Origin: Escherichia coli
GTDB taxonomy: Bacteria > Pseudomonadota > Gammaproteobacteria > Enterobacterales > Enterobacteriaceae
DNA length: 64,000 bases
Reading direction: 5' to 3' (one strand)
Assembly (NCBI RefSeq): GCF_050920415.1
Contig: NZ_CP169309.1
Part shown: one piece after another, positions 7,381 through 57,368 of the stretch
How the letters are laid out: each line of letters begins with the position of its first letter
How positions within the stretch are numbered: the first letter of the stretch is position 1
Translations under genes and position numbers: made by a program
Notes under the pieces: model-generated
Told to the model about the DNA's origin: nothing
The model's database searches: none
The model's input: the letters and a program-made list of their open reading frames with translations, nothing else

Positions 7381-8340
7381 TTAATAACAGTTCGGAATAT
7401 CAGCATCAGTGAGTTGGGTTGTCGCCAGCACAATCTCACGTTCAAAGCCCTGTTCCAGCATGCGCAAGGCAATTTTAATGGCTTGTTCATGCATACCTTC
7501 TACTTTGCCTTTCTGCAAACCCTCCAATTTCCCCTCCTGCCAACCTTCAATTTTACCTTCCTGCCAGCCAATTTGGTGTCCTTCCTGCCGTAGCCGTTCA
7601 GCAATAGTCATCAATTTCTCCTTTTGTAGTGGTGAACGTTCGGCAATCTCCTCAATAAAACGGGTGAAACGGGAGGTATCGCCGCATTGCAGCAGATAAT
7701 TAAACAGCGTTTGTAGCTGGCTGTCATTAGTGAAGCCTCTAACCAAAAGCGTGGTGATCCTGTCGACCATACCGATTAAATCGCGGTCGCGAATATGCTT
7801 TTGAATCAGTTCAAGCAGAGCTATACGCCGATGTTGCATGATCTCATCGTCAGGCACGATGGTGATATCCACCAACGGAAAAGCTTCGGTGTACAACTGC
7901 CGGGCAAGTTGCGGATCGTCAAACTCATCCAGCCAGTTAAGTGAGTATGGGTAGGGCGAGGTTTCGCCGTGATAAAACAGCAACGGCACCACCAGCGGGA
8001 CTCTGTCATAGCCTTTGTCAAGGTGACGCTGCATGGCGGCGGTGGCATAGCGCATTAGCCGAAAAGCCATATTCTTTTCTGCAGAGCTTTGATGTTCAAT
8101 CACGCAGTAGATATAGCCGTTACCGTCGCTGGTTTCCACGGACCACAAAACATCCGAGTAGTAAGCGCGTAAACTTTTTTCAATAAAGCTGGTGGGTTCC
8201 AGGCGTAAGGTTTGCAGGTTGCAAAGTTTACGCAGTGGCTCCGGTAGATGTATTTCGAGAAAATCCCGCGCGGTTTCGGGCGAGAACATAAAGGTTTTAA
8301 ACACCGCATCATGCGGGGAGGAGGTTGTTGATTCGGTCAT
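7381..8340 (-). CDS. rpnE: Rpn-family recombination-promoting nuclease (transposase_31 / PD-(D/E)XK-like)
   Basis: 319-aa minus-strand ORF; N-terminal SPHDAVFK...YSDVLW...IEHQS region typical of Rpn/YhgA-like proteins; C-terminus carries EGWQEGK-type heptad repeats. Confidence 0.8.
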
Positions 8341-8533: not shown

Positions 8534-12598
<4,065 letters not shown>

Positions 12599-12745
12599 TG
12601 TTATCCCTCTGAAGTTCGTTTTTTTACCATTTAGCCATAGTAAAAACATGAATTGTTTGATTTCGCGCATATTCGCTCATAATTCGAAAGTGAAACGTGA
12701 TTTCATGCGTCATTTTGAACATTCTGTAAATCTTATTTAATAATG

Positions 12746-12761
12746 TGTGCGGCAATTCACA
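12746..12761. promoter_or_regulatory. CRP-binding site in the divergent glpACB / glpTQ control region
   Basis: TGTGCggcaatTCACA matches the CRP consensus TGTGA-N6-TCACA and lies between the divergent glpA and glpT starts. Confidence 0.6.
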
Positions 12762-12871
12762 TTTAATTTCTGAATGTTTTCTTAACATCGCGGCAACTCA
12801 AGAAACGGCAGGTTCTCCCACTGAATCAGGCTGTTAATCATAAATAAGACCACGGGCCACGGAGGCTTTCA

Positions 12872-14230
12872 ATGTTGAGTATTTTTAAACCGGCGCCACA
12901 CAAAGCGCGCTTACCTGCCGCGGAGATCGATCCGACTTATCGTCGATTGCGCTGGCAAATTTTCCTGGGGATATTCTTTGGCTATGCTGCTTACTATTTG
13001 GTTCGTAAGAACTTTGCGCTCGCTATGCCTTACCTGGTGGAGCAGGGATTCTCACGCGGTGATTTAGGTTTCGCGCTTTCTGGGATCTCGATCGCCTATG
13101 GATTTTCGAAATTCATCATGGGTTCGGTGTCGGATCGCTCGAATCCGCGCGTTTTCCTCCCCGCAGGTTTGATTCTGGCGGCGGCAGTGATGCTGTTTAT
13201 GGGCTTTGTGCCATGGGCGACATCGAGCATTGCGGTGATGTTTGTACTGTTGTTCCTCTGCGGTTGGTTCCAGGGTATGGGGTGGCCGCCGTGTGGTCGT
13301 ACTATGGTGCACTGGTGGTCGCAGAAAGAACGTGGCGGCATTGTGTCGGTGTGGAACTGCGCACACAATGTCGGTGGTGGTATTCCGCCGCTGCTGTTCC
13401 TGCTGGGGATGGCCTGGTTCAATGACTGGCACGCGGCCCTCTATATGCCCGCTTTCTGCGCCATTCTGGTGGCACTATTCGCCTTTGCGATGATGCGCGA
13501 TACCCCACAATCCTGTGGCTTGCCGCCAATCGAAGAGTACAAAAACGATTATCCGGACGACTATAACGAAAAAGCGGAACAGGAGCTGACCGCAAAGCAA
13601 ATTTTCATGCAGTACGTGCTGCCGAACAAACTGCTGTGGTACATCGCCATCGCCAACGTGTTCGTTTATCTGCTGCGTTACGGCATCCTCGACTGGTCAC
13701 CGACCTACCTGAAAGAAGTTAAGCATTTCGCGCTGGATAAATCCTCCTGGGCCTACTTCTTCTATGAGTATGCGGGCATTCCGGGCACCCTGTTATGCGG
13801 CTGGATGTCGGATAAGGTCTTCCGCGGTAACCGTGGGGCAACCGGCGTCTTCTTTATGACACTGGTGACCATCGCAACTATCGTTTACTGGATGAACCCG
13901 GCGGGCAATCCCAACGTCGATATGATTTGTATGATTGTCATCGGCTTCTTGATCTACGGTCCTGTGATGCTGATCGGTCTGCATGCGCTGGAACTGGCAC
14001 CGAAAAAAGCGGCAGGTACGGCAGCGGGCTTTACCGGTCTGTTTGGTTACCTGGGCGGTTCGGTGGCGGCGAGCGCGATTGTTGGTTACACCGTGGACTT
14101 CTTTGGCTGGGATGGCGGCTTTATGGTAATGATTGGCGGCAGCATCCTGGCGGTTATCCTGTTGATAGTTGTGATGATTGGCGAAAAACGTCGCCATCAG
14201 GAATTACAGCAAAAACGCAATGGAGGCTAA
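12872..14230 (+). CDS. glpT: Glycerol-3-phosphate:phosphate antiporter (MFS)
   Basis: 452-aa ORF; highly hydrophobic MFS translation; GGAGG RBS upstream; followed 4 nt later by glpQ. Confidence 0.92.
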
Positions 14231-50646: not shown

Positions 50647-50948
50647 TCGTGTTTATGACCTGTTAAAACTTCGCGAAGTGATAGGGCAGTATAAAGGGTA
50701 CAGTGTGAAATTCCAGACTCTTACCTGATTGATGATTCTCTATTCTCCCGTGATATTTATCATCCTGCATTGGGGGAAATAGATGTACAAGTGCCATTTT
50801 GCTGTACAAATAACCTACAAAAAGCCTAACGAAATTAATTGCAAATAAACGAAGATTGCTGGAAATTATGCTGATGTTAATTATTTGTGAAATAGTTAAC
50901 AAGCGTTATAGTTTTTCTGTGGTAGCACAGAATAATGAAAAGTGTGTA

Positions 50949-57163: not shown

Positions 57164-57368
57164 TATTTCGACGCTGACCTGGCGGACTGCTGCCGCCAGG
57201 TCAATATTCTAAAAAACCCTTCGTTTCTAATAACCCTATAATTAATCAACGAAATTATAATGTTTCTAAAATTAGAATATAATTTATAAACATTATTTAA
57301 ATGTTGTTACTTAAGTGTTACCGTTGATGCCGCGCAAATCTCACCTGCAATAAAGCGACTAAAAGTAA

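Follow-up and report, generated by a model that had tools for sequence, protein, structure and literature searches.

The 273-bp spacer at positions 12599–12871 of the window (the whole stretch of DNA that was analysed, 64,000 nucleotides) is almost certainly the divergent control region of the Escherichia coli glpACB and glpTQ operons in essentially its K-12 sequence, which makes the published regulatory map applicable to it. The region is already known and long studied, and it is an ordinary finding: the glpA–glpT spacer is among the most heavily annotated E. coli promoter regions, and its recognition is a rediscovery whose main value is that of a positive control, i.e., the CRP site and the divergent control region could be recognized by eye. 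RegulonDB 8.5 lists 21 binding sites of five regulators for glpTQ (Rydenfelt 2014). The computation covered the identity of the genes, the near-identity to K-12, the matrix scores, the shuffle controls and, with sets of 28 Enterobacteriaceae and 15 more distant Enterobacterales, the phylogenetic footprints. Published footprints, the positions of transcription starts and the dependence on regulators are taken from papers, and the protein assigned to each conserved block is inferred.

The spacer lies between the glpA start codon (12596–12598, minus strand) and the glpT ATG at 12872. The glpA coding sequence (10970–12598, minus strand; NCBIfam equivalog NF008313, 1107 bits) carries the glpA annotation in matching E. 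coli genomes; on the other side stands glpT, coding for the glycerol-3-phosphate:phosphate antiporter (12872–14230, plus strand; NF008433, 977 bits), and the adjoining ORFs as a set match the NCBIfam models for GlpA, GlpB, GlpC, GlpT and GlpQ. The GC content falls to 0.32–0.37 in the spacer core versus 0.52–0.63 in the flanks. Of 5426 complete E. coli genomes, 5419 contain a 471-bp query that spans the spacer, flanked by genes annotated as glpA and glpT. The earlier note's reading of a 273-bp AT-rich divergent glpACB/glpTQ control region is thus upheld by the flanking gene models, by these genomes and by the alignment to K-12. The allele itself is a minority one, with at least 99% identity in only 23 of the 5419 genomes: relative to the 272-bp spacer of K-12 MG1655 at the same locus, it has one additional T, in the T-run at 12619–12625, and four substitutions, at 12724, 12770, 12818 and 12868. 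None of these differences falls within the CRP cores, the composite box or the TTCG repeats discussed below, and all three RegulonDB CRP sites have the same sequence in the window and in K-12; the additional T changes by 1 bp the spacing from a GTTCG half-site to a conserved block in the glpA leader. For window positions 12626–12872, the K-12 coordinate is 2352374 + (12872 - window position). The K-12 glpTQ–glpACB control region was reportedly the subject of work by Larson, Cantwell and van Loo-Bhattacharya in 1992 and by Yang, Gerhardt and Larson in 1997.

CRP sites and the two documented promoters

The CRP site TGTGCggcaatTCACA, which the earlier note had read by eye, is located exactly at 12746–12761 and forms the core (TGTGCGGCAATTCACA) of a 22-mer at 12743–12764 (CRP site 1, centre 12753.5) standing at -41.5 of glpT, the class II position, and at -90.5 of glpA. 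With a CRP matrix built from 49 RegulonDB sites, glp sites excluded, the 22-mer scores 15.2 bits, above the training median of 14.2, and ranks first of 64,000 positions, so that a formal scan of the window returns the very site that had been named. Nine of its ten core positions fit TGTGA-N6-TCACA, and the GTG...TCAC positions are invariant or almost so in the 28 Enterobacteriaceae. Consensus matching alone operates at chance level (3 matches with at most one mismatch in 64 kb versus 2.07 expected), and the case for a real site comes from the bases around it, from its position and conservation and from the footprints in the literature. The same 16-mer is the RegulonDB site at -41.5 of glpTQ and -90.5 of glpABC (Shimada 2011 Table S5) and was also recovered by genomic SELEX (Shimada 2011 Table S4). 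The DNase I footprint of CRP-cAMP covers AATGTGTGCGGCAATTCACATT, i.e., this site, such that the element picked out by eye is the protected one; it is required for glpT expression, which in crp and cya mutants is too low to be detected (Kurabayashi 2017).

RegulonDB places CRP sites at -41.5, -91.5 and -131.5 of glpTQ, corresponding to -90.5, -40.5 and -0.5 of glpABC (Shimada 2011 Table S5); the two weaker ones, with cores at 12696–12711 and 12656–12671, had been missed by eye. CRP site 2 (12693–12714, core CGTGATTTCATGCGTC, centre 12703.5; -91.5 of glpT and -40.5 of glpA) is weak in E. coli, at 4.2 bits versus 8–16 in Citrobacter, Klebsiella, Raoultella, Buttiauxella and others, and the single CRP-protected region reported in footprinting is a different one (Kurabayashi 2017). 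The third site is a composite box, TTTGATTTCGCGCATA, at 12656–12671 (centre 12663.5; RegulonDB "CRP site 3", -131.5 of glpT and -0.5 of glpA), which scores 8.7 bits with the CRP matrix (rank 15), holds a degenerate FNR box, TTGAT-TTCG-CGCAT (12657–12670), and overlaps the best GlpR-type 20-mer of the spacer.

The RegulonDB numbering implies a glpT transcription start at about 12795 (12753.5 + 41.5) and a minus-strand glpA start at 12663 (12703.5 - 40.5), 132 bp apart. The hexamer TAACAT at 12783–12788 (plus strand) fits as the -10 of the database-derived glpT start, and its TA..AT pattern is conserved, with T and A at 12783–84 invariant and A and T at 12787–88 at least 90% conserved. Rightward transcription of glpT from about 12795 would then combine this -10 with a poor -35 and the class II CRP site at -41.5, a combination that accounts for the absolute requirement for cAMP-CRP; leftward transcription of glpA would begin near 12663, with the weak CRP site at -40.5. 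Downstream in the glpT leader, the conserved GGCCACGGAGGCT (12855–12867, plus strand), which includes the Shine-Dalgarno sequence GGAGG (12861–12865), is almost invariant in the 28 Enterobacteriaceae. A generic sigma-70 scan missed both documented promoters and picked up no more than an unrelated plus-strand TTGAAC/AATAAT pair, as is to be expected of activator-dependent promoters.

The glpT promoter resembles class II CRP promoters such as galP1 and the melR-derived model promoters in that a CRP dimer at -41.5 replaces the -35 element. It differs from them in that its CRP site is shared with a divergent promoter, for which it lies at -90.5, and stands among at least two weak CRP/FNR-type sites at intervals of 40 bp and 50 bp. 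GlpT is a route by which fosfomycin enters the cell, which lends the region a practical relevance: expression of GlpT depends on CRP site 1 and on any FNR action upstream.

The FNR-like box and a candidate second glpA promoter

No TTGAT-N4-ATCAA with two or fewer mismatches is present in the spacer, and the best FNR-like site, TTGATTTCGCGCAT, has three mismatches and scores 7.1 bits (rank 27), with 11.8 bits as the minimum of the ChIP-confirmed training sites. The matrix and consensus scans therefore bear out the earlier note's statement that no convincing FNR box could be found, in agreement with the absence of the glpA–glpT locus from both the wild-type FNR ChIP-peak table and the predicted-FNR-site table (Myers 2013). 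What that statement overlooked is the degenerate TTGAT-TTCG-CGCAT at 12657–12670, which lies within a published footprint: FNR D154A, a mutant insensitive to oxygen, protects in vitro a stretch of 70 bp that includes this word, and its binding to DNA of the glpA–glpT region is specific in footprinting and in gel shifts (Kurabayashi 2017). No consensus site underlies anaerobic control in E. coli, where this box is the sole FNR-like element. Its TTGAT half (12657–12661) is invariant in Enterobacteriaceae, and outside that family (Yersinia, Serratia, Pectobacterium, Providencia) the corresponding box scores as a good FNR site, with 11.7–14.2 bits. Counted from the annotated glpA start, the box is at -0.5, and counted from that of glpT, at -131.5; it would stand at -41.5 if transcription of glpA began near 12622.

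Nowhere in the spacer is conservation higher than in a block of the glpA leader at 12626–12639 (minus strand; read in the sense of glpA, T(A/G)TGGCTAAATGG), which the glp regulatory map does not account for. The block keeps a fixed 20-nt offset from an invariant ATCAAAC in every family examined. Across the 28 Enterobacteriaceae and the 15 more distant Enterobacterales, the stretch from box to block is constant in length and variable in sequence, whereas the ATG of glpA is found at distances of 65 to 139 nt.

The block is a candidate for the extended -10 (TRTGn + CTAAAT) of a further glpA promoter, of class II and FNR-type, whose start is predicted near 12622. Spelled out, glpA would have an anaerobic start at about 12622, FNR bound to TTGAT-N4-CGCAT at -41.5 and a -10 of TRTGn-CTAAAT at 12629–12639, with the annotated start at 12663 belonging to a separate CRP-driven promoter that is occluded by FNR binding. 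This reading is put forward tentatively, at a little under even chances. The geometry accords with it, the 32 bp from the box centre (12663.5) to the hexamer centre (12631.5) being that of a class II promoter, as do the box-to-block spacing, held constant while the distance to the ATG drifts, the TG at -15/-14 and the invariant T at -7 of the block, the quality of the orthologous box in other families and the D154A footprint. An activator at -0.5 of the annotated start, moreover, makes little mechanistic sense. Weighing against the second promoter, the proposed hexamer has T or C at -11 in place of the near-universal A, which argues against a sigma-70 -10; the E. coli box reaches only 7.1 FNR bits, wild-type FNR gave no ChIP peak at the locus (Myers 2013), and a GlpR half-site (AWCGAAC) would account equally well for the conserved ATCAAAC. 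Such a promoter may also have been described already in older papers. Data on the glpA transcription start were found neither in the supplements of Kim 2012, which hold an orthologue table only, nor in a Shigella anaerobic RNA-seq paper nor by a text search of the literature.

A precedent for such an arrangement is reportedly the ansB promoter, said to have been shown by Scott, Busby and Beacham in 1995 to be co-activated by FNR at -41.5 and CRP near -91.5. If glpA starts near 12622, it would be ansB-like, with the box at -41.5 and CRP sites at -81.5 and -131.5, and its orthologues in other families are likewise ansB-like in that a strong CRP site precedes their good FNR box by exactly 60 bp. 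Unlike in ansB, the FNR box of E. coli glpA is degenerate, the proposed -10 lacks A at -11 and the start is hypothetical.

Other identities for the leader block fared poorly. An RNA structure is disfavoured by 0 predicted pairs and no consensus structure in 15 aligned leaders; the best Rfam match, at 19 bits, stays below the gathering score of 40 and is not meaningful; sigma-54, NarL heptamer, NsrR and IHF readings fit poorly by eye, and the ArcA matrix has no top match over 12626–12639. A mini-ORF ([A/G]TG-NNN-NNN-stop) has no start codon in Providencia and Moellerella, and in Kosakonia its frame continues into glpA. The mini-ORF pattern does fit E. coli, Citrobacter, Yersinia, Pectobacterium and Edwardsiella, but on account of these failures it was rejected.

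GlpR operator candidates

GlpR is a DeoR-family repressor that senses glycerol-3-phosphate; its operator consensus, reportedly set out by Zhao et al. in 1994, is said to be the 20-bp palindrome WATGTTCGWTAWCGAACATW, and purified GlpR is said, from work by Larson et al. in 1992, to give protection that glycerol-3-phosphate relieves. Calibrated against known operators, the consensus is matched without mismatch by the main glpD operator and with 5–8 mismatches by four operator-like 20-mers upstream of glpF. The best GlpR-type 20-mer of the spacer, ATTGTTTGATTTCGCGCATA at 12652–12671, has 5 mismatches to WATGTTCGWTAWCGAACATW and scores 12.4 bits (rank 8 of the 64 kb, P = 0.02 versus shuffles), less than the 14.9–24.6 bits of the five GlpR training operators. 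It sits at one end of a conserved array of TTCG repeats at 12652–12691 (TTCG at 12662, 12672 and 12684, TTTG at 12656), the most conserved long block of the spacer, with column conservation of 0.8–0.9 or higher. A further half-site in the glpA leader, GAAGTTCGTT at 12611–12620 (AACGAAC in the glpA sense), has 2 mismatches to the half-site consensus, and its AAACGAAC is kept in most Enterobacteriaceae; together with the TTCG/TTTG cores it forms a tandem array in helical phase over the glpA promoter. The array at 12652–12691 is inferred to be the core of a GlpR operator region over that promoter, and through its TTCG/CGAA repeats GlpR would shut both operons.

The parallel to the GlpR arrays of glpD and glpFK lies in tandem operators of about 20 bp, half-sites of the form WATGTTCGWT and overlap with the promoter, and in the glpF upstream region the degeneracy, too, is equal to that of the glpA–glpT region (5–8 mismatches). 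It breaks down in the best site, which here has 5 mismatches versus none in the main glpD operator and doubles as a CRP/FNR-like box.

The earlier note had picked out three words as GlpR half-sites. Two of them lie within three mismatches of WATGTTCGWT, "tttgaacat" (inside 12714–12723) with 2 and "atattcgct" (inside 12668–12677) with 3, and the third, "aattcgaaa", has no match at that level. Thus the region was chosen rightly, while one of the words fails, the 20-mer at 12652–12671 went unnamed and the number of half-sites in the spacer does not exceed chance, with 10 at three or fewer mismatches versus 9.7 ± 2.9 in dinucleotide shuffles (P = 0.51). That the three words are themselves chance products of AT-rich DNA and no operators is a reading to which roughly one chance in three may be allowed. 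It draws on this equal density, on the failure of "aattcgaaa" and on the only moderate conservation around "tttgaacat". Set against it, the columns that hold "atattcgct" and the TTCG belonging to "aattcgaaa" are conserved at 0.8–0.9, the two words lie 10–12 bp apart and in phase with the best 20-mer, and the genuine operator-like 20-mers upstream of glpF are equally degenerate. Taken literally, single-site scans come close to leaving no GlpR or FNR motif above threshold, an outcome that the earlier note had named as speaking against its reading; this reflects the weakness of the GlpR and FNR motifs and not a wrong locus.

Published work has distant GlpR operators cooperating, and two 20-mers inside glpT score well in E. 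coli: CATGGGCGACATCGAGCATT at 13212–13231 (5 mismatches, 13.3 bits, rank 5 of the 64 kb) and a second at 13492–13511. Neither has an excess of synonymous-site conservation, and both score poorly in other genera, where the first collapses; they are set aside as weak candidates only.

The ArcA-like repeat and a possible indirect anaerobic control

With a matrix for the 18-bp direct repeat (TGTTA-N6-TGTTA) derived from ChIP-defined ArcA boxes, the scan of the E. coli spacer yielded borderline matches only and no good ArcA site. The best match (12771–12788, minus strand) scores 11.3 bits, inside the training range (9.6–21.9) though towards its low end, and coincides with the glpT -10. At 12724–12741 (plus strand), however, the decayed direct repeat CTGTAAATCTTATTTAAT is aligned with a conserved TTGTCATATTTCTGTAAC of other genera that resembles an ArcA or Pho box: the E. 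coli sequence scores 5–5.7 ArcA bits versus 12–18.6 in other genera and has 8 mismatches to the Pho-box consensus versus 2–4. An ArcA-box-like direct repeat is thus conserved in other genera and decayed in Escherichia. The 64-kb window holds no Pho-box-type 18-mer with three or fewer mismatches. A PhoB reading of the repeat has the strong Pho-box match of the other genera in its favour, yet a study of the Salmonella Pho regulon grouped glpT with PhoB-independent organophosphate transporters, and in Salmonella mutation of arcA alters the expression of glpABC; this makes ArcA the likelier reader of the repeat.

Joined to the second FNR-type glpA promoter near 12622, this loss gives a wider picture, held with somewhat less confidence than the promoter by itself: GlpR, CRP and FNR would share one overlapping box, and FNR binding would switch the start from 12663 to the downstream one, where T(A/G)TGGCTAAAT (12629–12639) would serve as an unusual extended -10 without A at -11. 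The FNR box and the ArcA-like repeat would both have decayed in Escherichia, most other Enterobacterales having kept them.

The rather unlikely opposing explanation is that FNR and ArcA act only indirectly in E. coli, e.g., via cAMP-CRP levels, nucleoid proteins or glycerol-3-phosphate pools, and that the FNR- and ArcA-like words are remnants or chance occurrences. It is in keeping with the count of zero above-threshold FNR sites in the spacer and the gap in the Myers 2013 site and peak tables, with the response of glpTQ and glpABC to fnr in only one of three expression data sets each (Myers 2013 Table S8), with the lack of any glpA or glpT entry in the ArcA ChIP and expression tables (Park 2013), with the decay of the ArcA-box-like element and with the reported anaerobic rise of the CRP and cAMP levels themselves (Kurabayashi 2017). 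Against it stand the specific binding of FNR D154A, the invariant TTGAT half with the good FNR box of other families and the FNR ChIP-chip peak that appears at the locus only in a strain without H-NS and StpA (Myers 2013 Table S7).

The glpA–glpT spacer and its CRP sites

Few regions of E. coli are as densely annotated as the divergent glpA/glpT control region, for which RegulonDB 8.5 lists 21 sites for five regulators at glpTQ (Rydenfelt 2014, PMC4280137), and what the earlier note found in it is correct and already known. The loose ends are a conserved block in the glpA leader, which may belong to a second glpA promoter, and the apparent decay of anaerobic-regulator motifs in the Escherichia lineage. 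The identity of the locus is confirmed by NCBIfam equivalog matches of the flanking ORFs (GlpA, 1107 bits; GlpB; GlpC; GlpT, 977 bits; GlpQ) and by 5419 of 5426 complete E. coli genomes, in which a 471-bp query that covers the spacer matches between genes annotated as glpA and glpT. The glpA start codon (12596–12598, minus strand) and the glpT ATG (12872) delimit 273 bp (12599–12871), exactly as had been proposed, and the spacer is AT-rich (core GC 0.32–0.37 vs 0.52–0.63 in the flanks). Just past glpC, an ORF at 7381–8340 (minus strand) matches Rpn-family recombination-promoting nuclease/ISNCY transposase models (707 bits).

Identity to the 471-bp query is 100% in few strains and 95–99% in most complete E. 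coli genomes; taken as a whole, the allele is uncommon, only 23 of 5419 reaching at least 99% identity. Relative to K-12 MG1655, the spacer has one extra T (T-run 12619–12625) and four substitutions (12724, 12770, 12818 and 12868). Since these leave the CRP cores, the FNR-like box and the TTCG repeats untouched, the K-12 literature transfers directly. The run of 7 T, against 6 in K-12, shifts the spacing between a GTTCG half-site and the conserved leader block by 1 bp.

A symmetric 22-bp CRP matrix, built from 49 RegulonDB sites in Shimada 2011 Table S5 with the glp entries left out, ranks site 1 (12743–12764; 15.2 bits, training median 14.2) first in the 64 kb, with TGTGCggcaatTCACA at 12746–12761, precisely where the earlier note had placed a CRP site. 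The same 16-mer is the genomic-SELEX CRP box for the spacer (Shimada 2011 Table S4), its sequence is protected in the cAMP-CRP DNase I footprint, and in crp and cya mutants glpT expression drops below detection (Kurabayashi 2017, PMC5352689). The bare consensus matches three times at ≤1 mismatch in 64 kb vs 2.07 expected; thus, the consensus alone discriminates site 1 less well, the signal being carried by flanks and context. RegulonDB places site 1 at −41.5 of glpT and −90.5 of glpA and lists two more sites that the earlier note did not report: site 2 (core 12696–12711, centre 12703.5; −91.5 glpT/−40.5 glpA), at 4.2 bits and rank 152 in 64 kb, and site 3 (12656–12671, centre 12663.5; −131.5 glpT/−0.5 glpA), at 8.7 bits and rank 15. 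Kurabayashi 2017 (PMC5352689) reported a single CRP-protected region. The RegulonDB positions put the annotated starts at ~12795 (glpT) and ~12663 (glpA), 132 bp apart, and the glpT −10, TAACAT, lies at 12783–12788. Two further CRP-matrix matches stand 59 bp apart elsewhere in the window, at 2852–2873 (12.2 bits, rank 4) and 2911–2932 (13.9 bits, rank 2).

A scan with GlpT yielded 80 loci across Enterobacterales, ~45 with divergent glpA; 28 Enterobacteriaceae spacers were aligned and column conservation was taken from 22 non-redundant ones. The conserved blocks are 12626–12639; 12650–12675 with TTCGAA at 12684–12689; CRP site 2, moderately; 12724–12744; CRP site 1, with nearly invariant GTG and TCAC positions; the glpT −10, as TA..AT; and the nearly invariant GGCCACGGAGGCT (12855–12867), upstream of the glpT ATG with the glpT Shine-Dalgarno. 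Conservation of GGCCACGGAGGCT reaches 6 nt upstream of the Shine-Dalgarno GGAGG. The glpT leader (12795–12850) shows no conservation among the 22 spacers.

Candidate GlpR operators

The 20-bp palindrome WATGTTCGWTAWCGAACATW, reportedly the GlpR operator consensus of Zhao et al. from 1994, was calibrated on the K-12 glpD and glpF regions: the main glpD operator has 0 mismatches, its neighbour 6, and four operator-like 20-mers upstream of glpF have 5–8, and real GlpR operators are therefore degenerate. On a matrix derived from five 20-mers of glpD and glpF, the top match in the spacer is ATTGTTTGATTTCGCGCATA at 12652–12671 (5 mismatches, 12.4 bits, rank 8 of 64 kb; P = 0.02 against dinucleotide shuffles). 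The earlier note had picked the right region for GlpR, but its detail is weak: its three strings are all present, with tttgaacat (2 mismatches) and atattcgct (3) qualifying as half-sites and aattcgaaa failing, and the impression of several half-sites is at chance level for AT-rich DNA (10 at ≤3 mismatches vs 9.7 ± 2.9 in dinucleotide shuffles, P = 0.51).

Two GlpR-like 20-mers inside glpT, at 13212–13231 (13.3 bits, rank 5) and 13492–13511, show no excess of synonymous-site conservation. Outside Enterobacteriaceae, glpA upstream regions (loci L050, L057, L063, L040, L038 and others) carry direct TTCGTTTTT repeats every 10–11 bp, in the stretch that separates the FNR box from a near-perfect CRP site, an arrangement that suggests GlpR half-sites as direct, not inverted, repeats.

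Anaerobic regulators across Enterobacterales

With an FNR matrix from 63 sites at FNR ChIP-seq peaks (Myers 2013 Table S6), the top score in the spacer is TTGATTTCGCGCAT at 12657–12670 (7.1 bits vs a training minimum of 11.8), and the FNR consensus has no match at ≤2 mismatches within the spacer. The failure to find a convincing FNR box by eye is thereby upheld, qualified by a degenerate half-box that lies within a footprint: the oxygen-insensitive FNR D154A protects 70 bp starting 32 bp from CRP site 1, and TTGAT-TTCG-CGCAT was pointed to within this stretch (Kurabayashi 2017, PMC5352689). Myers 2013 has neither a predicted FNR site nor a wild-type ChIP peak at the spacer, a peak appearing only in a strain without H-NS and StpA (Table S7), and scores each of glpTQ and glpABC as activated by FNR in one out of three sets of expression data. 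A 14-mer inside the glpA coding sequence, TTGCTGCGGATCAA at 12224–12237 (11.9 bits, 1 mismatch), outscores all of the spacer and is probably a chance match.

Among Enterobacteriaceae, the TTGAT half of the box is invariant, while the other half varies (CGCAT, AGCAT, AGCAA, AACAT; GCTCAA in one Klebsiella species), with scores of 6–12.5 bits and one of 16.7. In Yersinia, Serratia, Pectobacterium, Dickeya, Brenneria, Providencia, Moellerella and Edwardsiella, the box is TTGTTCCTTATCAA, TTGCTCTTTATCAA or TTGTTCTTTATCAA, scoring 11.7–14.2 bits, with a strong CRP site exactly 60 bp upstream in all but one locus. Since these orthologous boxes fall inside the validated FNR-site range, the best reading of the E. 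coli box is that it descends, in degenerate form, from a genuine FNR site. This comes with the caveat that the invariant ATCAAAC is also compatible with the GlpR half-site AWCGAAC, so that its reader protein cannot be assigned from conservation alone.

An ArcA matrix from 115 boxes (Park 2013 Table S3) recovers the rcsD (50874–50891, 21.5 bits) and mqo (57304–57321, 21.0 bits) boxes, both identical to entries in that table; a CRP-like match (50883–50904) and an FNR-like one (50750–50763) lie nearby. The spacer reaches only 11.3 bits, at 12771–12788 (minus strand), overlying the glpT −10, and neither glpA nor glpT is listed in the ChIP and expression tables of Park 2013. Most genera have, in the interval from CRP site 2 to site 1, a direct repeat, TTGTCATATTTCTGTAAC or TTGTAATAAAAATGTAAC, scoring 12–18.6 ArcA bits with 2–4 mismatches to the Pho-box consensus; the TTGTCATATTTCTGTAAC form is conserved in Citrobacter, Klebsiella, Enterobacter, Kosakonia, Cedecea and Buttiauxella. 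The corresponding E. coli position is 12724–12741 (aligned with loci L008, L019, L022, L036 and L043 in alignment A2 of glp loci), where E. coli and E. albertii retain only 4–6 ArcA bits and have 8 Pho-box mismatches, and the repeat appears decayed in both; no 18-mer in the 64-kb window matches the Pho-box consensus at ≤3 mismatches. In Salmonella, an arcA mutant has raised glpABC expression, and a Pho-regulon study grouped glpT with PhoB-independent transporters. ArcA is the likelier reader of the conserved repeat, rather than PhoB.

A conserved block in the glpA leader

Conservation in the spacer peaks at T(A/G)TGGCTAAATGG in the glpA sense (ACCATTTAGCCAtA on the plus strand; 12626–12639), a block that falls inside the annotated glpA leader and is not accounted for by the published map consulted here. 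RNA structure, Rfam and mini-ORF readings do not explain it. Its offset from the ATCAAAC of the FNR/CRP-like box is fixed at 20 nt in every Enterobacterales family examined, though the sequence between varies, and the block lies anywhere from 65 to 139 nt away from the glpA ATG. This fixed offset, together with a class II geometry (box at −41.5, TG at −15/−14, hexamer CTAAAT, invariant T at −7), makes a second glpA promoter starting near 12622 possible, of which the block could be the extended −10; against this, position −11 of the hexamer is T or C, not A. A candidate GlpR-type half-site, AACGAAC (12611–12618), would fall just downstream of such a start. An NsrR ChIP-seq summit in strain CFT073, 41 bp upstream of the glpA ATG, maps to ~12639 (PMC5320621).
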